Source of the DNA: Desulfurococcaceae archaeon
GTDB lineage: Archaea; Thermoproteota; Thermoprotei_A; Sulfolobales; Desulfurococcaceae
DNA length: 10,922 nucleotides
NCBI GenBank assembly: GCA_038888155.1
Contig: JAWAJB010000036.1
Span: forward strand, 1-10,922
Direction of reading: 5' to 3'
Below the pieces are notes generated by a model. The model was given only the letters and a program-made list of their open reading frames with translations. It made no database searches and was not told the origin of the DNA. This document shows, in pieces, positions 2 through 10,922 of the stretch; position 1 is the stretch's first letter; each line of letters begins with the position of its first letter. Made by a program: the position numbers and the translations under genes.

Positions 2-565
2 TCCGAATTTAACGATGAAATAGTTATCGGTGCCATTGCTCGGATCTCACCAGAAAAAGGTCTGCATAGGTTAATAGCAATAATGAAAAAAGTTAAAAAC
101 ACATCACCAGAGATATTAAAGAAAATTCGAGTATTACTAGCTGGAAGAATTGATCATCAGAGATACGCTTTTCAAGTACTAACCAATCTAAGTAAACTAT
201 TAAAAGAGAAATTTTCCTATGTAGGTGAAGTGGCTTCCCCTTATAAGTTCTACAAAATGATTGATGTTCTAGTCGTGCCATCATTAATCGAAACTGGTGC
301 TATAACCGTTTTAGAAGGTATGGCAGCCGGAAAGATCGTCATTGCTAGCGATATATACCCTATAAACCTCTACATAAAACATGGATACAACGGTTTCCTA
401 TTTAAGTCCTCTGAAGATGCAGTTAAAATTCTTCATCAAATCATCTCAATGGGTTCAGAGTTTAAAATTTTCGCTAAAAGAGCTCAAGAGTATGCACGAG
501 AGCATGATTACAAAAATGTGTGTCAAGCGCTTGAAAGAATATACATCAACTCGAGTGGAAGATAG
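2..565 (+). CDS. GT4 (GT-B fold) glycosyltransferase, 5'-partial; starts upstream of the window
   Basis: The frame of ORF 83..565 is open back to base 2 (SEFNDEIVIGAIARISPEKGLHRLIAIMKK), so ATG 83 is internal. GT4 motifs: ARISPEKG, DVLVVPS, EX7E (ETGAITVLE), GMAAGKIVIASD, HGYNGFL. Confidence 0.93.
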   Translation, partial: SEFNDEIVIGAIARISPEKGLHRLIAIMKKVKNTSPEILKKIRVLLAGRIDHQRYAFQVLTNLSKLLKEKFSYVGEVASPYKFYKMIDVLVVPSLIETGAITVLEGMAAGKIVIASDIYPINLYIKHGYNGFLFKSSEDAVKILHQIISMGSEFKIFAKRAQEYAREHDYKNVCQALERIYINSSGR

Positions 566-598: not shown

Positions 599-1825
599 AT
601 GCGAATAGCTGTGTTTACTCCTTATCTCTATCCATTCCAAATAGATATGCTGGAGACTTTGAGAAGGGTAACTTCAACAAAACTCTTTACTCTTGGAATT
701 TATGGCAACTATCCGTTCGAAGAATTTTTGAAATACACCGTACTTTTTAAGCCTGTTATTAGAGTACTAGGTCAACCAATGTTCTCACCTTTGGATATAC
801 TTAGATTCATTCAGTGGAAGCCTAACGCAGTAATAATTTACGGTGCGGAAAGTATTTCAGGTCTGTGCATCTTCTTTATTTCCAAACTTATAGGTGCTAA
901 GACGCTTGTCATAGTGGAGGAGAATAACATAACTTCGCTTAATAGCATTATCTTGAGCTTTATTCAAAAGATTAAAAGAGCCATAGTCAAGTTTGTCTAT
1001 GAGTTCTCAGATATGGTGATCGCAGAATCCTCGGCATCAAAAAGATACGTCGAGAAGATGCTTCACGTAAGGAGAACTAAACATTTCTACATTTACCCTC
1101 ATGGAGTTAATGTAAGACGTTTTGCTGAGAACAATCACTCTAAAAATGGTATGAAAGCAAAAGAACAGCTATCGAGAAGTCTTGGTTTATCAAAAGACCT
1201 AATCGAAAAACTATGGATTTGCTTTATAGGAGAGTTATCTTACTGTAAGGGCGCTGATGTACTGATCGATTCAATAGAGATCCTTAGAAAGAGAAATGTG
1301 CTACGTAAGTACAACTGCGTATTTTTCTTACCTGGGAAATCTAGGCTCTTATCAGATAGGCATGATCTTAGGCACATATATCTACAGAAGCTGGCTAAAC
1401 TTGTTAAGGAAGGTTACGTCGTCTTGTACCCCCCAATAGCGCATAATAAAGTATCCTTGCTCTATCGCTCAGCTGATATAATAGTTCTCCCATCGAGATC
1501 GCTCAAGTATACGAGTAGTGATAGAAGCCCAAATGTTGCGTTAGAAGCTCTTGCTACCGGTTCGCTCTTGGTAGCCTCTTATGCGGGAGGTATACCAGAT
1601 ATTGTGGGCGATGCCGGCATTCTAGTCAAACCCAACGATCATCAGGCATTAGCTGATAGAATAGAGGACGTAGTGAGAAATTACGAAAAATATCAAAGCT
1701 TGAGGGGAAAAGCACGTACAAGAGCTATCACAAATTTCGATATCAGACTTTACGCCTTTACCTTAATAAAGAGCTTGTGTAAAGCTATAAAAGAGCTCCG
1801 GGAAATGAGCAATATGCGAGCTTGA
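599..1825 (+). CDS. GT4 glycosyltransferase (408 aa)
   Basis: MRIAVFTP N-terminal strand, YPHGVN linker, FIGELSYCKGADVLI, ADIIVLPS, DRSPNVALEALATG, GGIPDIVGDAGILV. Confidence 0.92.
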   Translation: MRIAVFTPYLYPFQIDMLETLRRVTSTKLFTLGIYGNYPFEEFLKYTVLFKPVIRVLGQPMFSPLDILRFIQWKPNAVIIYGAESISGLCIFFISKLIGAKTLVIVEENNITSLNSIILSFIQKIKRAIVKFVYEFSDMVIAESSASKRYVEKMLHVRRTKHFYIYPHGVNVRRFAENNHSKNGMKAKEQLSRSLGLSKDLIEKLWICFIGELSYCKGADVLIDSIEILRKRNVLRKYNCVFFLPGKSRLLSDRHDLRHIYLQKLAKLVKEGYVVLYPPIAHNKVSLLYRSADIIVLPSRSLKYTSSDRSPNVALEALATGSLLVASYAGGIPDIVGDAGILVKPNDHQALADRIEDVVRNYEKYQSLRGKARTRAITNFDIRLYAFTLIKSLCKAIKELREMSNMRA

Positions 1826-2272: not shown

Positions 2273-4231
2273 ATGAGGCAAATTATTTCAAAAGTAGTTT
2301 TGTTCTTCTCCTTGCCCTTACTATTGATTATGCTTCTTTATAGGGAGCCCATGATGGAAATTTTTGGAGCTGTTGTCTCCTACCTAGTTATCTTTACATT
2401 CGCTCTCCTCTTTCTATGGTCACTAATATACAACGTCATTAAACCCGGTGAGGTTAAACGGATTTTTTGGAGTGATACCATCGTTCCTTCAATTCTTTTG
2501 TTCTATCTTTGTCCTTCTCTGTGTGTTATCTCATTCTTAACATGCATCCTATTGAACGCTCGGTCAATCCTTTTAGTTGTCCTTTGTTTAGGGCTTTTCC
2601 TGTCATCTATTTTGGCGGTACTTCTTAAAGCTGCAAGTAATGCTACATTGTTTAGCATCAATACTCTACTCTTAACACTTATACTATCTACATATTTGTT
2701 CTATCCTCCATCGCTTGGTAACGACACTTGGAGAGATGTTGCTTGGGCTGAAGCTATAGATAAAGATGTTAGTTGGCCTGAAATTAGTCCATATCCTCTT
2801 CCAATAATCCCTGTATTATACTTGATATCCTCTAAAATTATTGGTCTTTCAACTGTGGAAGCGAGTGCTTTAATAGGTCTCATCTACATAGAGTTGGTGG
2901 TTATACTTGTTTATGTTTTGAGCCGCATATTGGCTAGATCTACTACTTCATTATCGCTCATGATTATACTTCTAATAACCTCAAATCCTCTTATCACACT
3001 TTGGAGTGTACATTTTATTCCGCAAGCATACGCCTCAGTTCTTTCCTTATTCATCGTATTGTTTACAGTTAAAGAGATGAGAGGTGGTCGAAGCCCTTTA
3101 GTCTTGACGCTTCTTATAACCCTCTCTTTAGTATTTAGCCATGCAGCTGTCAGCATCTCAACAGCATTTCTGCTCTTATGCGTGTTAAGTGGCGTGAGGT
3201 TCCTTCAAAAGGGGGAGGTTCCCAAGGTACATTGCCAATACGTGAAGTCTACTATTAAGCTTCTATTCATGGTTTTTTCGGCTTACGTCATATTCACTAC
3301 TTTAATTGAGGTTTTAGTTATGGGTGCAAAGAACATCTTAAGCGTTTTTTCGAAGGTTGTTATGGGCGTAGAGCCACAGCGAGTTAGTATCGTAACAGCG
3401 ATGGGAAATCCACTACTTACAGCATTACTTAGTTATGGCTCGTTGGCTGTTTGTGTAGTAGGTGCTTTCTTCGCGTGGCTTGATAATAAACCTTCAGGGA
3501 GCATTAAGGCAACCATCACAGAAGCAGGTTTCTTTTTTGGACTTATCTTATTAACCGTAAGCGTGCTTGGGCTTGTATATAATCCTGAGTTGGTTCTTGA
3601 CAGATACTTAGGATTGCAAGCATTACTCATCTTAACTATATTGTCAGTAAATGGATTTGATACATTATTAAGGAGAAACGGTGCTGGGAGAATCCTTATT
3701 TTAGCTATTGTCATTCTACTGGCAGCCGCAACAGTTTATGGAGGTACTTTCACTCCAGACCAAGACTTCCTCAATAAATCAAATATGTATGCTGTGCATG
3801 CCCCAATAAGTTGGAATGAAAAGACTAGCATAGATTCAATGGTACCATACATTAAAGGTTTAACAGCTTATACTGATTGGAGAGTCCAAACATATGTTAC
3901 TTGGTACAGCATAAAAGATAACCAGGTCTTTGCTATAACACGTTTAGGATCACCATGGAGGGTAATTTTGGATTTTCACGACTTTACGCAACTCACGCTA
4001 ATAAGCCTTGGGACTTACCACCTTCGTTTAACTCTATTAAATGATGGAAGCATCGGATTAACATATACCGGTATAACTGAAAAAGCGAATGGTCTACTCA
4101 TTTACAGACCCTACGCTTTTGAGGGCTTAAATATCCTTTCAGGGAAACTTAACGAACAAATTCTTTATAAGAACGTCTGCATCCACAACAAAATCTATGA
4201 TGGACCAATGGAAGCTTTTATAGTAGGTTAA
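2273..4231 (+). CDS. Polytopic membrane protein (652 aa), possible GT-C-fold glycosyltransferase or glycan polymerase-like protein
   Basis: About 13-14 hydrophobic segments by eye, an acidic loop (YPPSLGNDTWRD...PYPLP), a DRY motif near the last helices and a ~155-aa soluble C-terminal domain ending NKIYDGP. The CDS is secure; function is inferred from topology and context. Confidence 0.7.
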   Translation: MRQIISKVVLFFSLPLLLIMLLYREPMMEIFGAVVSYLVIFTFALLFLWSLIYNVIKPGEVKRIFWSDTIVPSILLFYLCPSLCVISFLTCILLNARSILLVVLCLGLFLSSILAVLLKAASNATLFSINTLLLTLILSTYLFYPPSLGNDTWRDVAWAEAIDKDVSWPEISPYPLPIIPVLYLISSKIIGLSTVEASALIGLIYIELVVILVYVLSRILARSTTSLSLMIILLITSNPLITLWSVHFIPQAYASVLSLFIVLFTVKEMRGGRSPLVLTLLITLSLVFSHAAVSISTAFLLLCVLSGVRFLQKGEVPKVHCQYVKSTIKLLFMVFSAYVIFTTLIEVLVMGAKNILSVFSKVVMGVEPQRVSIVTAMGNPLLTALLSYGSLAVCVVGAFFAWLDNKPSGSIKATITEAGFFFGLILLTVSVLGLVYNPELVLDRYLGLQALLILTILSVNGFDTLLRRNGAGRILILAIVILLAAATVYGGTFTPDQDFLNKSNMYAVHAPISWNEKTSIDSMVPYIKGLTAYTDWRVQTYVTWYSIKDNQVFAITRLGSPWRVILDFHDFTQLTLISLGTYHLRLTLLNDGSIGLTYTGITEKANGLLIYRPYAFEGLNILSGKLNEQILYKNVCIHNKIYDGPMEAFIVG

Positions 4232-4423: not shown

Positions 4424-5527
4424 ATGGGAAGTATTCGGATATGTCAGTTATTTGGTTATTATGACTACGGTGGTATTTGCAGGGTTGCTGTGGAACTAGC
4501 ATTAAGGCTTAGAAGGGTCTTTGACGTTACTTTAGCATGCCGCAAGGTCTTAAGAAGGCCTGAAGAAGGCATTGAGGTCATCGAGTTAGGCTCTAGAAGC
4601 ACGGCAGACTTATGGAAGAAATTGCGAAAGTTAAGAGAACTATTTGACGTAATCCATACACATGACGTGTACTCCCTTCCAGCTTTGGTGAGAGGGCGGC
4701 GTAGGGCGAAGGTGGTTTACACAGATCATGGGCTCGTTCCCATTAAGTATCAGAGCCATATTATGAGGAGTTTTCATGGAGTTATGTTTGCCCACTTATG
4801 TAGACTATTTGCTCGATGGGCAGACGTCTCAGTTGGAATAAGTGATTATATTGTTGCTGAGCTAAAAGAAATTGGTTGCCTAAATGTGTTAAAAGTACCT
4901 AATGGGGTTGATCTTGAGAGGTTTAGACCTATTGAGAGGCTTGAGGACCTTCATAAGCTGAAGATCGGGGATCCAATGTTGCTGAAAGTTGGACTAATAG
5001 AGAAGCATAAAGCTGTGGATTATCACATTGCGGCAATGCCGTTCATTTTAAAGAGATTCCCGCGAGCACGTTTAGTGTTCATTGGCACTGGCAAAGAAAT
5101 TGATCACTATAAAAGATATGTTAAGATGAAGAAGCTCGATCGCTTTGTACATTTCCTTGGTTGGGTTCCTGATAATTTATTACCCCTCTATTATAATGCA
5201 GCGGACGTAATTCTCCAAGTTGATTATTGGCATGGTTTTGGCCTTCCAATTTTAGAGGGAATGGCTTGTGGTAAGCCGGTTATAGCCCGTAACGCTTACG
5301 CCATGAGGGAACATATTCTACGATCAGGAGCTGGCGTTTTGGTTGAGGGGAAGGACCCTCGAGAACTAGTGGTAGCACTAGAACAAATCCTCAGCAACTA
5401 TGAGGATTATTCATTAAAAGCAAGGAAGTATGCTGAGCTTTTTGACTGGGATAAAGTGGTTGCTAAGTACGTGGAAGTTTATGAGAAAACGTTGGGGCAC
5501 TCTTACCAAAATAGAAGGTTTGCTTAG
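4424..5527 (+). CDS. GT4 glycosyltransferase (367 aa)
   Basis: YGGICRV loop, FDVIHTH, VVYTDHG, ISDY, VPNGVDLERFRP, VHFLGWVP, YYNAADV, GFGLPILEGMACGKPVIA. Confidence 0.95.
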   Translation: MGSIRICQLFGYYDYGGICRVAVELALRLRRVFDVTLACRKVLRRPEEGIEVIELGSRSTADLWKKLRKLRELFDVIHTHDVYSLPALVRGRRRAKVVYTDHGLVPIKYQSHIMRSFHGVMFAHLCRLFARWADVSVGISDYIVAELKEIGCLNVLKVPNGVDLERFRPIERLEDLHKLKIGDPMLLKVGLIEKHKAVDYHIAAMPFILKRFPRARLVFIGTGKEIDHYKRYVKMKKLDRFVHFLGWVPDNLLPLYYNAADVILQVDYWHGFGLPILEGMACGKPVIARNAYAMREHILRSGAGVLVEGKDPRELVVALEQILSNYEDYSLKARKYAELFDWDKVVAKYVEVYEKTLGHSYQNRRFA

Positions 5528-5539
5528 GTTGCGAGTATA

Positions 5540-7167
5540 TTGGGAGGGTTAATTAAGAGAAATACTTGTATTAAACTGTTCGCGTATTCCATTTTAATAA
5601 TTTCGCTGTTCCTGGCAGTATTTTCCCCGATGTATTTTCAACTTGTGGGGGGTTACGCCGCTCCTACAGCCACCTATGCATACATGTTAATAAGCAAAAC
5701 TGAGATACCCAATGAGACCGATTACTGGTCTTATGCTTTAATGGCTGAAATAGAGTATCCTGCTCCATCCATATTTCTCAGCATATATTGCGAGATTCTA
5801 GGATTACCATTAAGCCTGAGAATGTTTCAACCAGCAATGAGTTTAGCTTCTTTAGTTTTTCCGTGTTCGCATTGAAGATTATGATGTTGAGAGGAATTAG
5901 GCACGAGCACGCTTTGTTCTTATCTGCTATATATTATCTATTTATCGTTACAGATCAATTAATCGCCCATTATATAGGCAGAGCAACTTTTGGAGTATGT
6001 CTTATAGCGTATTTTCTCTTAGCGCTTCTGGTACATATAGGTTGCTACAAGCGAGAAGGACTTAACTTTATTACTTATAACGATTTTGTTAGGATTTACA
6101 TACTATACAAGCACGTTAGCCATATTCTTGATAAGCATATTTTCATATCCATTAGTAAAGCTAATCAACTCAAACGGACATCACTTTAAGCATTACAAGG
6201 AATTGTACGTACTTTCACTCCTGACAATTGTTCTCATAATTGTACGATCCACCTCTACTCTTACACTTCTAGCAAGTATAAGCTCAGAAAAGTTTTATTA
6301 TATTTGATCGAATATTTAAAGGCTCAGCTTAAGATAGAAAAAGCTTCTGAGGCATATTATCTTTTTGTAGGAGTTGGTGGGGAAATAGATCCTATTATCA
6401 GAGTGACTCAGATATGGTTACGTACTTTCGTAAAGCTGATTGCAGCCACAACATTGCTCATTCTATTTTTAAGAGAAATCATTAAATCATTGCAAAGAAA
6501 AGAGAAAATTGATGCAACTCGCTTGAGTGCATATATTATAATAGCCTTTGTGTGTTCTTTGTCGGAACTCACTCATACATTTATAGCTCCTACATTCTCC
6601 TTAAGATTCTTTACTATGTTCGGGTTACCTGCTTTCATATTACTAACGTATTCTAGAGTTACTTTAAAAACCGCATCTAGCAGTGTTTGGAATAGCGCAC
6701 GCAAAGCTATATTAGCAACAACCTTGGGACTATTACTTATCATAAGTATGACTTCTACGATTATGCTTCAACATGGTGAGGTAGGGCATGCAAAGCTATA
6801 CGGCTATGAAAAAGTTCAAAGTCTAGTTACTTACTTAACAGCCGGAAATCCTTTAAATAGGATTATAATAGCTACTGATGCTTATTATTCTGCGGTTCTA
6901 TACTATTTACTAAGGATCAGTAACAGCAACGTAACAGTGGAGCCTTTAGGTCCCACATCGATAGCTTTGTATTACGCATGCAACAACACCTCGCTATACT
7001 ACGATAACCTAATGTACCAACTCCGTTCTCGACAACTTCTCCTAGTGCACGATGAAACTATTTTTGGTGATCCATGGGGCTACGCTGTGAGAATTTGCAA
7101 GTGCGAGCTTGCGTCTATGTTCGATTTAACGTATTCTAATTCAAAATTCACATTACTAACACGATAG
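5540..7167 (+). pseudogene. Single ~540-aa polytopic membrane protein gene split by three frameshifts (pseudogene or sequencing indels)
   Basis: ORFs 5540..5875, 5788..6189, 6086..6307 and 6304..7167 alternate between two frames and join into one continuous hydrophobic protein. Shifts fall at T5 5856-5860, at ~6035-6060, and at A4/T4 6288-6296. It has an EYPAP loop and a soluble C-terminal domain ending DLTYSNS. Confidence 0.8.
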
Positions 7168-7169
7168 AA

Positions 7170-8405
7170 ATGCACAACATTTTAGCCTTTGCACATGGTC
7201 TTTGTTTAGGTGGAGCCCAGGTATCTACCCTAGAGTTCCTTGAGTTGCTAAGAGGCGAAGTGGATTTAAAGGTTGTTGTCTGCGAGAATGCTAAGGAGGA
7301 GTTCCTCAGGCAGCTTCAAAGGCTTAACATCAAATATAGAGTAGTTCCTTGTTCTACAACCTTAGGAGTGCCAGGCATGAATGTTAGTTTAATTAAAGAC
7401 TGGGTTAAGTGGTCTGACATTGTGTGGATTACCGATATTGAATTCTCTATAGCGCCTAGGATCAAAAGGATTAGGGAAGTCCCCGTGGTTGCGCATCTCC
7501 ACAGCTACCCGCTCCTCTGTCCTTGGTGGGGGCTCCTCTACGACATGAGGAAGGTATGCTATAGAGGTTGTAGTTTATCGAGGATTGTGAGGTGTAAACA
7601 AGTGTTTAATGAAGAGCTAAGTAGACTCGGCATCATCGGCAGCTTCAGGAGCTCTGCATATCAGGTACTGGACCTTGTTAAGGGGCCTCTAGATTATCTC
7701 AGCTGGCGACGAGTCGTGAACAGGGACTTGATAGACTCGATAGATGGCTTCATCGCAGTCTCGAACTTCGTCAAGAGAGTTCACGAAGCTCTTCTACCAG
7801 TCGAGGGTAAACCGATCGAGGTCGTATACAACCCAGTGACGTACCCCCTAAAGTACATTAAAGACGTTAAGCCGAGAGAAAACCTTGATGAGAACCTCAT
7901 CGTGTACGCCTCCGGCTCAAACCCCGTTAAGGGTCCGCACTTAGCTCTTCAAGCTCTAAAGCTACTGTTGAATGATGGTATGGACCTCAAGCTCATCATG
8001 TTTGGTTGCAGGGGCTCTTGGGTAGAGGAGTATGCACGTAGGCTCGGGATCAGTAGGTCGGTAGTCTTTGTTGGGAGGGAGTCCTTCGCCAAACTTTACG
8101 AAACTATCTCTTCTGCTAGCGTGGTGGTCATGCCCAGCATATGGCCTGAGCCCTTCGGCAGAATACCAGTAGAAGCTAATAGGTTAGGAGTGATGGCCGT
8201 TGTAACGAATAGAGGAGGGCTTCCAGAAACCGTAGTTCATGGCGAGACAGGCTACGTAGCTAACCCCCATCCTGAGGATATAGCAAAGATGCTGCTGAGA
8301 GCGCTGAAGAACGCTAGAGGGAAAGCGGTCAAAGAGAAGTCTCTGAAGACCATTAACCCCCAAGCGAGCGTGGGCAAACTACTTGACTATCTGTCTAAGT
8401 TCTAA
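7170..8405 (+). CDS. GT4 glycosyltransferase with Cys-rich insert (411 aa)
   Basis: LGGAQ loop, HLHSYPLLCP, FIAVSNFVK, VVYNP, NPVKG, PSIWPEPFGRIPVEA (EX7E), GGLPETVVHGETG. Starts 2 nt after the upstream stop. Confidence 0.95.
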   Translation: MHNILAFAHGLCLGGAQVSTLEFLELLRGEVDLKVVVCENAKEEFLRQLQRLNIKYRVVPCSTTLGVPGMNVSLIKDWVKWSDIVWITDIEFSIAPRIKRIREVPVVAHLHSYPLLCPWWGLLYDMRKVCYRGCSLSRIVRCKQVFNEELSRLGIIGSFRSSAYQVLDLVKGPLDYLSWRRVVNRDLIDSIDGFIAVSNFVKRVHEALLPVEGKPIEVVYNPVTYPLKYIKDVKPRENLDENLIVYASGSNPVKGPHLALQALKLLLNDGMDLKLIMFGCRGSWVEEYARRLGISRSVVFVGRESFAKLYETISSASVVVMPSIWPEPFGRIPVEANRLGVMAVVTNRGGLPETVVHGETGYVANPHPEDIAKMLLRALKNARGKAVKEKSLKTINPQASVGKLLDYLSKF

Positions 8406-8431
8406 AAGATGGCTATCGCCAAGAAGTAAAA

Positions 8432-8438
8432 GGTGAGG
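8432..8438 (+). promoter_or_regulatory. Shine-Dalgarno site GGTGAGG for ATG 8448
   Basis: aaGGTGAGGatccatcaaATG; the GTG start in the ORF track (8433) lies inside this motif. Confidence 0.6.
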
Positions 8439-8447
8439 ATCCATCAA

Positions 8448-9641
8448 ATGGCTAAGGTAGGCATTCTAACCTTTCACTGGGCTAACCACATTGGCGCAGT
8501 TCTTCAAGCCTATGCTTTGCTTAAGGTGCTCGAGAGCTTAGGACATGAGACTTACGTAATAAATTACCACCCAGGTTTAGAGCTAGTGGTTTCGTATGTG
8601 ATTAGACCTGATAAGTTGGTAAAGAAGTACGGACTATTACGTCTTCCATTTCGGAAAACGATTAGATCGATGTTAGGAGAAATCATTTACTATTTGCCCG
8701 ACTTATCTAGCGAAACTAAGAAAACGCTAGCTTTCAGTTCCTTTAGAGAAAAACACCTTAAGATTAAGCCAAGGAAGTGTGTGGTGAACGTAGAAGAGTT
8801 ACGACAAGAATGCTCTAATTATGAGGCAGTTCTCGTAGGGAGCGACCAAGTATGGAATCCAGAGTTTCTCAAGTACTCTGACCATTGCTATCTGCTTCCG
8901 TTCAATCTGAAAAACACTATGAAGATAGGGTTCTCAGCAAGCATAGGTGTAGGGTTCTCAACACACAAGGAGCTGTTAACATTATACAAGTGGTTTCTTA
9001 AGGACTTCAAGTTCATATCTATTAGAGAACGCCGTCACGCCGAGGAGCTTTCGAAAACCCTAAACAGAGCTGTTTACCATACACTGGACCCTACTTTGCT
9101 TGTATCCAAGGAGGTTTTTGAGGAGCTTTCCCGCAATCACTTTAAACCAGTACATGGAAAGTATATCCTCTTCTACAACCTAGATCCAGGCTTGCTTCCC
9201 TTTACCGAGGTGTTAGAGAAGTTGTTAAACCTTCCAGTGATCATATACAAGGCTCCTACCACTATTCGTGAGAAATTATTGTACAGCAAGTGGCTTGAAA
9301 ACAAGGCTTCATTTTACCACACGGGTCCCCAAGATTTCATATCACTTCTCAAGCATGCTGATTTAGTGTTTACTGATAGTTATCATGGTCTAACTCTGTC
9401 GGTCCTCTTTGAAAAACCAGTTTTAGTAACGACGTTAGGTCCACCTCATAGAGCTGGAGTTAAGTCACGTATTGAAGACCTAGTCGAACTACTTGGTTTA
9501 CAAGATAGGGTAGTTAGGAGGAAAGAGGATATAGTGAAAACACTTCGCAAAGACTTGGAGGATTACAGCGCTGTGAGGTCTAAGCTGAGAGAGCTTAGGA
9601 GAACCTCCATAGAGCTATTGAAAGAGGCTCTTAGACCTTGA
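8448..9641 (+). CDS. Polysaccharide pyruvyl transferase family protein (PF04230-like)
   Basis: KVGILTFH..GAVLQAYAL, VGSDQVWN, SASIG, ISIRE, LDPTLL, GPQDFISLLKHA, TDSYHG, LFEKP, SRIEDL. Start moved from GTG 8433 to ATG 8448 because of the SD site and the family N-terminus. Confidence 0.9.
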   Translation: MAKVGILTFHWANHIGAVLQAYALLKVLESLGHETYVINYHPGLELVVSYVIRPDKLVKKYGLLRLPFRKTIRSMLGEIIYYLPDLSSETKKTLAFSSFREKHLKIKPRKCVVNVEELRQECSNYEAVLVGSDQVWNPEFLKYSDHCYLLPFNLKNTMKIGFSASIGVGFSTHKELLTLYKWFLKDFKFISIRERRHAEELSKTLNRAVYHTLDPTLLVSKEVFEELSRNHFKPVHGKYILFYNLDPGLLPFTEVLEKLLNLPVIIYKAPTTIREKLLYSKWLENKASFYHTGPQDFISLLKHADLVFTDSYHGLTLSVLFEKPVLVTTLGPPHRAGVKSRIEDLVELLGLQDRVVRRKEDIVKTLRKDLEDYSAVRSKLRELRRTSIELLKEALRP

Positions 9642-10921
9642 GAATAGATGTTTCAAGCGTTTCTTGCTCTGGTTGTGGTATATGCGTAGTTCTATGCCCA
9701 CGCGATGCGTTGAAGTTGAGCTTCTCAGCAGTGGGACATTTGAGGCCGACCTTAAACAAGAGTCTCTGCGTTGACTGCGGTCTCTGTGCGAGAGTATGTC
9801 CTTTCGTGGATGTAAGTAGTGAGAGAGAAGTAGTGCTGAGCAGTTTTACGGCCAGCTTGATCGGCAAGTACGTGAAGGTAGGGTTAGCTTGGTCTACCGA
9901 TGAGAGAGTTAGGTTCAATTCGGCTAGTGGTGGTGCTGCTACCTCGATTCTTAAGTACTTGCTTGAGGAGAGGATGGTTGACGCGGTTCTCGTTCCGAGG
10001 ATTTGGGTAAAGCGAGGTATGGTCTTCGGCAGATACGAAGTGGTTTACGACCCGAAGGAGGTAATAAACTACGCGGGCTCCATCTACGCTCCAGTCGATA
10101 TCACTAAGGCGCTTAAGGAGGCCTTCAAGAAGGGGTTGCATATCGCCTTAGTGGGCCTACCGTGTCAAATCAGAGGACTACGCAAGTCTTTCCAGTACCT
10201 GCCACGCCTCAAGGATAACATAAAGCTTGTTTTAGGTCTCTACTGCAATAATACACCCAGCTCTAAGGCTGCGGGATACGCTGTCAAGACGCTACTGAAG
10301 GTAAACCCGGAGAAGGTCTCACGTTTAACCTTTCGGGGACACGGGTGGCCTGGATATGCAGTAATTGCTACTGATGACGGTAGAACGCTTAAAGTCTCGT
10401 TCCCAGTCTTCTGGGGCTCTGGGCTTGGTCAATACTTCTACGGGAGGTCATGTCTCGTATGCCCTGATCATGCTGCTGAGCTTGCCGACATCTCGCTCGC
10501 TGATCCATGGACTTACCAGAGAGGTATCGGTACTGGTAAGACCCTCGCCGTTATCCGCACAAAGTTAGGGCTTGAGGTCCTCGTGAGGGCTGTTGAATCA
10601 GGGTACCTGAGGTTTGAGGAGATTCCAGGGTTCTACGCAGTCCAGTACACTACGCTACTCAAGGAGACCGTGAAGGTGATAGGTGGGAGGAGTTTCAGGT
10701 ACCCCTACGTTATTCCACCTAGCATCACTACAGTTCTCCACGAGATTGACTATCTAGTGGGTGGTGTTCTTGCGAGGGACGAAAGACTATGGTCTCTCCT
10801 CAGGCTCTACACGAAGGCTCGACACTACATATTCAAGCCGCTGGTTGCCCTCGACTATTTCTTGAAGCTAGGGTTCTCAAGGGTACTGGCCAAAATCTCT
10901 AAAGCATGGATCGTTAGCTAA
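9638..10921 (+). CDS. FrhB/FdhB-family (F420 hydrogenase/dehydrogenase beta-like) Fe-S flavoprotein with N-terminal 2x[4Fe-4S] ferredoxin domain
   Basis: CSGCGICVVLCP and CVDCGLCARVCP; SASGG, GSIY, VGLPCQI, LGLYC, FRGHGWPG, SCLVCPDHAAELADISLADPW. The TTG start overlaps the upstream TGA (TTGA, 9638-9641). Confidence 0.92.
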   Translation: MRIDVSSVSCSGCGICVVLCPRDALKLSFSAVGHLRPTLNKSLCVDCGLCARVCPFVDVSSEREVVLSSFTASLIGKYVKVGLAWSTDERVRFNSASGGAATSILKYLLEERMVDAVLVPRIWVKRGMVFGRYEVVYDPKEVINYAGSIYAPVDITKALKEAFKKGLHIALVGLPCQIRGLRKSFQYLPRLKDNIKLVLGLYCNNTPSSKAAGYAVKTLLKVNPEKVSRLTFRGHGWPGYAVIATDDGRTLKVSFPVFWGSGLGQYFYGRSCLVCPDHAAELADISLADPWTYQRGIGTGKTLAVIRTKLGLEVLVRAVESGYLRFEEIPGFYAVQYTTLLKETVKVIGGRSFRYPYVIPPSITTVLHEIDYLVGGVLARDERLWSLLRLYTKARHYIFKPLVALDYFLKLGFSRVLAKISKAWIVS

Positions 10922-10922
10922 C

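Follow-up and report, generated by a model that had tools for sequence, protein, structure and literature searches.

The gene pair

The window considered here is the whole of a 10,922-nucleotide (nt) contig (JAWAJB010000036.1, assembly GCA_038888155.1) from a Desulfurococcaceae archaeon, on which all the sizeable open reading frames (ORFs) lie on the + strand. It ends one base beyond the second of two overlapping genes, the first for a PF04230 (polysaccharide pyruvyl transferase) enzyme and the second for an iron–sulphur flavoprotein of the FrhB family, and it is with this pair, which may be a two-enzyme module for making lactyl ethers, that we are concerned.

8448..9641, + strand: gene 1, PF04230 polysaccharide pyruvyl transferase of the 'GSDQVW' (c1) subclade, 397 residues (Pfam, E 3.7e-28)
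9638..10921, + strand: gene 2, 2x[4Fe-4S] ferredoxin domain, FrhB_N/FrhB_C flavoprotein core and helical C-terminal extension, 427 residues (Pfam, conserved cysteines, AlphaFold2 (AF2) model, Foldseek)
9638..9641, + strand: TTGA, 4-nt overlap of gene 2 start and gene 1 stop (sequence)
Gene 2 protein, residues: ferredoxin domain, about 7-64; FrhB_N/FrhB_C core, about 75-345; helical extension, about 363-426

Gene 1 starts with an ATG at 8448 that has GGTGAGG just 5' of it (an alternative in-frame GTG lies at 8433), and gene 2 runs from a TTG at 9638 to a TAA stop ending at 10921. The TTGA overlap, pointed out in an earlier note that was made from the letters of this DNA alone, is present in the sequence at 9638-9641 and couples the two genes translationally. 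An identical overlap is found in two other loci (L004 and L006) and in a complete genome of the same order (G034), where a syntenic locus has the pair preceded on its 5' side by GT4 (glycosyltransferase family 4) genes. The earlier note had also placed the pair in a run of glycosyltransferases free of hydrogenase and formate dehydrogenase genes, and a Pfam scan of the window agrees, finding four GT4 genes and neither of the other two kinds.

Linkage of the two families across genomes

How general is this arrangement? Using an alignment of seven FrhB-like sequences, we fetched 80 loci (one genome per species) from Archaea and many bacterial phyla, and marked PF04230 genes in them with an iterated profile, 67 of the 68 candidate neighbours being confirmed by Pfam. 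A PF04230 gene was found within 5 kilobases (kb) at 65 of the 80 loci (adjacent at 44, fused at one and nearby at 20). Adjacent genes were on the same strand at 41 loci, with the transferase upstream in 25 and downstream in 16, and on opposite strands at three; at a further 11 loci no PF04230 gene was seen in what was a short flank. The two domains also occur naturally fused, in both orders: Fer4-FrhB-PT in P0088 (PT being the pyruvyl transferase), FrhB-PT in L111 and L117 and PT-FrhB in L119, with a further fusion of 980 residues in L013. These came from a search for proteins of near length and from the loci themselves; a homologue search limited to longer proteins gave no long fused forms. 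The earlier note had stated that similar pairs exist in bacterial polysaccharide loci, which they do, and had looked to co-occurrence of the two families as a check on its idea, which these counts and fusions supply.

The host genome itself has exactly two PF04432 matches, one in the window and the other on contig C100, and each is paired with a PF04230 gene. The two FrhB-like proteins are only 29% identical, and the C100 locus has a different setting, with a polysaccharide deacetylase gene and two GT2 genes. Because there is this second pair in the same genome, and because adjacency extends across phyla and natural fusions exist, the pairing is more than chance, and the two genes constitute a conserved functional module. 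In an evenly drawn sample of 201 Thermoproteota genomes, PF04230 was found in 19 and PF04432 in 77; 10 of about 25 PF04230 genes had a PF04432 match at a distance of about 2.5 kb or less, in seven of the 16 genomes that had both families. The closest homologues are in metagenome-assembled genomes labelled Desulfurococcaceae, Sulfolobales, Thermofilaceae and Bathyarchaeia, which places the host in the Thermoproteota and probably in the Desulfurococcaceae.

The C100 pair (G000:C100, equivalent to L003:3255-5686) also shows the FrhB-like gene after the PF04230 gene, with a short overlap. The host has a third PF04230 gene (G000:C42:3457-4368), on a contig without a PF04432 match.

The transferase and its subclade

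Gene 1 belongs to PF04230 by the curated threshold (99.7 bits against a cut-off of 25.3, over profile positions 1-275 of 280). Its TDSYHG segment (H313), invariant in an alignment of its subclade (A5), aligns with TDRLHAH of Pvg1p (5ax7), in which H339 is the reported binder of phosphoenolpyruvate (PEP), the CsaB counterpart being H308 (PMC10435577). The PEP-binding histidine segment of the family is retained in the window transferase.

The PF04230 partners of FrhB-like proteins fall into more than one clade. When 70 transferases were clustered (68 neighbour ORFs, the transferase of the Escherichia coli O146 antigen cluster and the C-terminus of P0088), 63 of them formed a WcaK-like cluster, c0, whose profile matches E. 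coli WcaK, annotated as colanic acid pyruvyl transferase, at 4e-54; the window enzyme gives no match to it (E 0.3). It is found in cluster c1, characterised by GSDQ[VI]W, to which the P0088 C-terminus, the O146 transferase and the transferases of L004 and L006 also belong, and c1 includes Desulfurococcus and Bathyarchaeia orthologues of the window enzyme. The pair carried by Desulfurococcus (L004 type) is 85% identical to that of the window. The 'GSDQVWN-type' subclade recognised in the earlier note is a real group, and one that is linked to reductases. The transferase of the C100 pair represents a third type, aligning with the window enzyme only at E 0.72.

Lactyl ethers and the O146 cluster

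Lactyl (1-carboxyethyl) ethers are found in many O antigens, capsules and exopolysaccharides, and we know of no established enzymology for their biosynthesis outside MurA/MurB. Among E. coli O antigens, lactyl groups are carried by L-rhamnose (O58), D-glucose (O124 and O146) and N-acetyl-D-glucosamine (D-GlcNAc; O69 and O150), and O164 differs from O124 only in lacking the lactyl group, through a frameshift in wfeP (PMC7685785). The O146 cluster was located with the published O146 wzy primers (PMC4309606), which led to a metagenome contig (L084). Among 5,426 complete E. coli genomes, 17 match this contig at 99-100% identity, and in every one of them wzx and wzy are annotated as O146-family genes. 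The gene order of the cluster is galF-rfbBDAC-nitroreductase-wzx-PF04230-GT4-wzy-GT2-GT-gnd. The transferase and the nitroreductase would seem to be the sole candidates for making the lactyl group, because the other genes are for rhamnose, glycosyltransferases, wzx and wzy; to our knowledge neither role has been demonstrated experimentally.

The window transferase aligns over its full length with the O146 transferase (24% identity, BLASTP E 4e-30), which, judged by sequence, is its nearest relative with a known glycan context. In both cases a c1 transferase gene and a flavoreductase gene share a glycan locus. The reductase of the window is FrhB-like and that of O146 has a nitroreductase fold without Fe-S domains, and the O146 genes are non-overlapping and separated by wzx. 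The earlier note had suggested comparing paired loci with polysaccharides known to carry carboxyethyl ethers: the transferase belongs to the subclade present in the cluster for an antigen with lactyl-glucose, and its partner there is a nitroreductase and not an FrhB-like protein. Distant-mode blastn with the O146 nitroreductase and transferase genes returned only the 17 O146 genomes.

Other bacterial glycans provide suggestive parallels. Klebsiella K22, K37, K66 and K8 have pyruvyltransferase genes and yet are described as having non-pyruvylated capsules (PMC4616057); K22 contains 4-O-[(S)-1-carboxyethyl]-GlcA (GlcA being glucuronic acid), and the K37 structure is that of K22 but for an acetyl group (PMC3857182). 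The K22 and K37 clusters are probably of the same kind as the O146 pair. In Campylobacter, the occurrence of a 234-Da N-glycan sugar, for which the identity of glucolactilic acid has been proposed, correlates with that of a pyruvyl transferase gene in pgl operons (bioRxiv 10.64898/2026.05.23.727390). That a 'pyruvyl transferase' gene lies behind lactyl sugars is already implicit in the O-antigen and Campylobacter literature. FrhB-like or 'F420 hydrogenase' genes have not been linked to lactyl ethers in the literature that we could consult, their only mention being in a gene count for 79 Klebsiella cps clusters, in which one gene is named 'coenzyme F420 hydrogenase' and two are for nitroreductases (PMC4616057). 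Nor did we find there the pairing with an FrhB fold, the fusions, the exchange with a nitroreductase, the independence from F420 or the presence in Archaea, although subscription papers and supplements were outside our reach and may hold a prior assignment.

In E. coli ATCC 8739 (L085:3514-5102), an IS1 element interrupts the final glycosyltransferase gene of the O146 cluster, and this strain may not make the complete O146 antigen.

Exchange of the reductase beside c1 transferases

A search starting from the c1 transferase (A5) was made in the 201 Thermoproteota, 401 Gammaproteobacteria and 401 Bacillota genomes. Both of the matches in Thermoproteota were linked to an FrhB-like gene, and all three in Gammaproteobacteria stood beside a PF00881 nitroreductase gene in loci with GT2, Wzx and Wzy. 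Bacillota gave 37 matches in 31 genomes, and at 23 of the 30 loci inspected there was an FrhB-like gene: adjacent in 12, fused in three, separated by an intervening ORF in six, and 4-5 kb away in two. The loci with an intervening ORF are instructive. Six (L123, L124, L131, L132, L133 and L135) have the FrhB-like gene, a wzx-like ORF of about 500 codons and the transferase gene in the very order of reductase, wzx and transferase seen in O146 (L085), and flippase families come foremost in a Pfam tally of their neighbours. No nitroreductase ranks among the 25 commonest Pfam families at the Bacillota c1 loci. The simplest account of this distribution would be that two unrelated flavoreductases are each able to serve a PF04230 enzyme.

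In a FastTree phylogeny of 101 FrhB-like proteins, from which fragments below 330 residues and fusions above 620 residues were excluded, 18 c1-linked proteins from Bacillota form one clade (support 1.0), archaeal c1-linked proteins together with the C100 paralogue form another, and nearly all of the c0-linked proteins fill the remaining cluster. The type of partner is phylogenetically structured on this tree, and relatedness alone could yield much of the pattern. The PF04432 bit score was also tried as a separator of transferase-linked from unlinked FrhB homologues, and gave no clean split.

One protein labelled Clostridiales (P0090, 582 residues) combines a nitroreductase domain, a Fer4 motif and FrhB_N/C, and thus has both types of reductase in one chain.

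The flavoprotein

The product of gene 2 matches PF04422 (1.1e-17), PF04432 (2e-28) and, over residues 7-64, Fer4 families. Its ferredoxin domain has the motifs C10xxC13xxC16xxxC20P and C44xxC47xxC50xxxC54P, and its core has C176 (PCQ), C203 (LYC) and C272xxC275. The earlier note had read two CxxCxxCxxxCP motifs and four core cysteines from the sequence, and these prove to be conserved across 56 homologues: in their alignment C10, C13, C16, C54, C176, C203, C272 and C275 are invariant, as are G98, G99, Y150, R233, D284 and D289 of the core, and C20, C47 and C50 are conserved in at least 90% of the sequences. The AF2 model is confident (pLDDT 89.6, pTM 0.90), and its top Foldseek matches are 8riu_B, 8rja_E, FrhB chains, the N-terminal half of Fsr, and FdhB (E 1e-18 to 1e-22 for chains of the FrhB family), HCAR being more distant (5dqr_E, E 1.9e-15). 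With both Pfam domains, the four cysteines of the core cluster and the FrhB fold, the protein is a member of the FrhB/FdhB family. It falls far below the equivalog cut-offs for F420 hydrogenase (TIGR03289, 82 bits against 331.5) and FpoF (NF040616, 71 bits against 475).

FrhB, FpoF, FdhB, the N-terminal half of Fsr, 8riu_B and 8rja_E share the fold and the [4Fe-4S] cysteine set with the window protein, and the last two have an N-terminal ferredoxin domain as well. Those proteins, however, are F420-linked and work in energy or assimilation complexes, whereas the window protein has glycosyltransferase neighbours, and the host bin (G000, 97% complete) gave no match to the F420-synthesis genes CofD (PF01933) and CofH (TIGR03551). 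CofH was above its cut-off in none of five other genomes that carry the pair. These absences make F420 an unlikely cofactor of the flavoprotein. Its ferredoxin domain suggests a low-potential electron input, which would fit an anaerobic fermenter. HCAR and BciB provide precedents within the fold, both being ferredoxin-dependent enzymes that carry out a biosynthetic reduction without F420, which in BciB is that of a C=C bond; they differ from the window protein in acting on tetrapyrroles, in having no fused 2x[4Fe-4S] domain and in having no link to PF04230.

The C-terminal extension (residues 363-426) is long and helical in the confident model, and is absent from the solved FrhB chains of about 280 residues. 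It is a feature of the window family that distinguishes it from the FrhB group, being present in the 56 homologues as an amphipathic stretch of 58-102 residues. In the C100 paralogue it is clearly hydrophobic (GLSCIIVMLPYIMIMSSLF). A role for the tail as a transmembrane anchor was considered and discarded: only four of the 56 tails have transmembrane-like hydropathy, and the tail is amphipathic only. A prediction of the complex of the two window proteins from separate alignments gave a score of 0.00, which is not evidence either way.

A proposed route to lactyl ethers

We propose, with a probability of about 0.58, that the pair is a two-enzyme module that adds a lactyl (1-carboxyethyl) ether to a sugar of the glycan built by the neighbouring GT4 enzymes. 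In the first step the PF04230 enzyme would move the enolpyruvyl group of PEP to a single sugar hydroxyl, releasing the product as an enol ether without ring closure to a ketal. In the second, electrons would pass from the 2x[4Fe-4S] domain through the core [4Fe-4S] cluster to the flavin, coming probably from reduced ferredoxin and not from F420, and reduction of the C=C bond by the flavin would yield the lactyl ether. The identities of donor, electron donor, product and acceptor glycan, as well as the sequence of the two steps, are inferred by analogy with known systems.

The overall scheme would be the chemistry of MurA and MurB carried out by unrelated folds: a PEP-derived enolpyruvyl ether on a sugar hydroxyl, followed by flavin-dependent reduction to a lactyl ether. 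Neither the EPSP-synthase-like family of MurA nor the FAD_binding_4 family of MurB is among the Pfam matches of the two proteins, so that the pair is an analogue of MurA/MurB and not a member. It would differ also in its reductant, probably ferredoxin in place of NADPH, and in its acceptor, for which comparison with CsaB makes a nascent glycan, or one linked to lipid, more probable than UDP-GlcNAc (PMC10435577). A biochemical precedent for the second step is provided by FbiB, whose nitroreductase-fold domain uses reduced flavin to convert the enolpyruvyl group of dehydro-F420-0 to an (S)-lactyl group (PMC6450877), although FbiB has another fold, acts on a cofactor precursor and has no Fe-S clusters. 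The conversion of an enolpyruvyl to a lactyl ether had been the central inference of the earlier note. What has stood is that the pair is a conserved module outside energy metabolism and that its flavoprotein is unlikely to use F420; the lactyl product is argued by analogy only, from the kinship with O146 and the precedent of FbiB.

A broader proposition, to which we would give even odds, is that the F420-independent reduction of enolpyruvyl ethers is the function of those FrhB-fold Fe-S flavoproteins that have a fused ferredoxin domain. They would be the counterpart of MurB in a widespread pathway to lactyl ethers based on PF04230, in which reductases of the nitroreductase and FrhB folds are interchangeable.

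Several observations weigh against the proposal. The analogy with O146 passes through a different reductase fold, and we know of no glycan structure for the host. Seven of the 30 Bacillota c1 loci (two of them at contig ends) lack both an FrhB-like gene and a nitroreductase gene of the O146 kind over a distance of about 6 kb. Among the 80 FrhB-like loci, four with flanks of at least 5 kb have no PF04230 neighbour; their neighbours are transposases (L020), a Wzx flippase (L025), radical-SAM and GT9 genes (L029) and, in L069, unrelated genes that place the FrhB-like gene in an altogether different context. Most FrhB-like partners in other phyla are paired with WcaK-like (c0) transferases, examples being found in Kordiimonas, Georgenia and Methanosarcina, and WcaK is a ketal-former with no known reductase partner. 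Since WcaK resembles this majority, an FrhB-like neighbour alone does not exclude a ketal product, and at c0 loci either lactyl ethers are made too or the flavoprotein has another task. As to F420, the host does have a CofE-like gene (G000:C114:3917-4654, PF01996, E 3.6e-55), a lone homologue of the F420 ligase, and the absences of CofD and CofH are soft, the bin being 6.4% contaminated and far larger than its congeners.

Alternative explanations

The first alternative is that the transferase forms an ordinary pyruvate ketal, the FrhB-like protein carrying out some other redox step on the glycan or its precursor (on a keto or unsaturated sugar, for example) or opening the ketal reductively to a lactyl ether. 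We think this unlikely, but it has to be taken seriously, given the 63 WcaK-like c0 sequences among the partners, the formation of ketals by WcaK, and the fact that the PF04230 enzymes named as characterised in two papers, CsaB, Pvg1p and WcfO, are all ketal-formers (PMC6801904, PMC10435577). These enzymes and WcaK, like that of the window, belong to PF04230 and have a conserved histidine-containing donor motif, and they use PEP as donor, as the window enzyme probably does (PMC10435577). They differ from what is proposed for it in forming a cyclic ketal, and they are not known to have a reductase partner. Formation of a ketal requires no redox partner, and yet the two proteins are repeatedly fused and their genes translationally coupled. 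The subclade of the window enzyme is present in the O146 cluster, for whose lactyl-glucose antigen no ketal is reported in the accessible part of the source (PMC7685785), and Klebsiella K22 and K37 are said to have such genes without pyruvylation (PMC4616057). Moreover, what Gammaproteobacteria put at the same position in the locus is a nitroreductase, a fold with proven activity in converting enolpyruvyl to lactyl groups (PMC6450877). The genomic context of c1, read through these analogies, argues against a ketal product for the subclade of the window enzyme.

A second alternative is that the FrhB-like protein does not act on a sugar at all. As a partner for electron input or redox sensing it would regulate or stabilise the transferase, or else it would supply electrons to another enzyme of the locus. 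The fused ferredoxin domain lends itself to such a role, P0090 can be read as an FrhB domain feeding a separate catalytic flavoprotein, and the FrhB-like gene of L029 is beside one for a radical SAM/SPASM protein. But clusters of the O146 type have a nitroreductase gene and no FrhB-like gene, and loci of the FrhB type have no O146-like nitroreductase gene; because the two occupy separate loci, each reductase appears to suffice alone with the transferase. The FrhB core has, in addition, retained its invariant G98, G99, Y150, R233, D284 and D289 and the four cluster cysteines, and we consider a purely auxiliary role quite improbable.

Hardly credible is a third alternative, in which the flavoprotein would belong to an energy-metabolism complex, linked to F420 or ferredoxin, whose other subunits are encoded past the contig end, and would be only incidentally adjacent to the transferase. 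The contig does stop one base after gene 2, and in structure the protein most resembles the F420-reducing modules of CODH, Fwd, Frh and Fsr. Yet the linkage to PF04230 is systematic, fusions exist, CofD and CofH were not found, and no hydrogenase or dehydrogenase subunit is encoded in the window or in the syntenic locus of the complete genome G034. The latter has, 3' of the pair, small ORFs and genes for a sugar epimerase, a nucleotidyltransferase and a solute-binding protein, and with no energy-complex genes downstream it bears out the view of the earlier note that the flavoprotein lies outside such a complex.

Implications of the proposed lactyl-ether module

If the proposal is correct, hyperthermophilic Desulfurococcaceae and many uncultured bacteria and archaea would bear muramic-acid-like carboxyethyl sugars on their surface glycans, and muramic-like sugars would be predicted in Archaea. 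Hundreds of genes in polysaccharide loci named 'coenzyme F420 hydrogenase beta subunit' would be misnamed, and the recurrence of this misleading annotation in glycan loci would be explained, the FrhB family gaining an F420-independent catalytic role. A c1 PF04230 gene with a reductase gene would then serve as a genomic marker for acidic lactyl sugars, and could aid the prediction of structure from serotype in Klebsiella and E. coli.

Other features of the window and its host

The remaining genes of the window are listed below in their order along the contig.

2..565, + strand: GT4 glycosyltransferase, C-terminal part, truncated by the contig start (PF00534, E 1.2e-25)
599..1825, + strand: GT4 glycosyltransferase (PF00534, E 9.3e-21)
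2273..4231, + strand: polytopic membrane protein, 652 residues (hydrophobic sequence; no Pfam or NCBIfam match)
4424..5527, + strand: GT4 glycosyltransferase (PF00534, E 2.8e-29)
7170..8405, + strand: GT4 glycosyltransferase directly 5' of the transferase gene (PF00534, E 1.5e-29)

The 652-residue membrane protein may be a polymerase or transferase of the locus, and the syntenic locus of G034 has a 590-residue ORF that is likewise without a Pfam match. Between the last two complete GT4 genes (5540-7167) there are three short, partly overlapping membrane ORFs (5540-5875, 5788-6189 and 6304-7167) without a family match, which may be a single frameshifted or degraded gene for a polytopic membrane protein; a comparable series of small ORFs is present at 3701-5475 of L004, an 85%-related locus.

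The host bin is 2.42 Mb in size, with 6.4% contamination, and 16 genomes of the same genus are of 0.9-1.5 Mb; of these 16, two have PF04432 and none has PF04230. Either the bin may be mixed, or the glycan loci may be strain-specific islands. Within the window, the last GT4 gene and the pair (7500-10922) have a G+C content of 0.45-0.50, compared with 0.36-0.40 for most of the contig.

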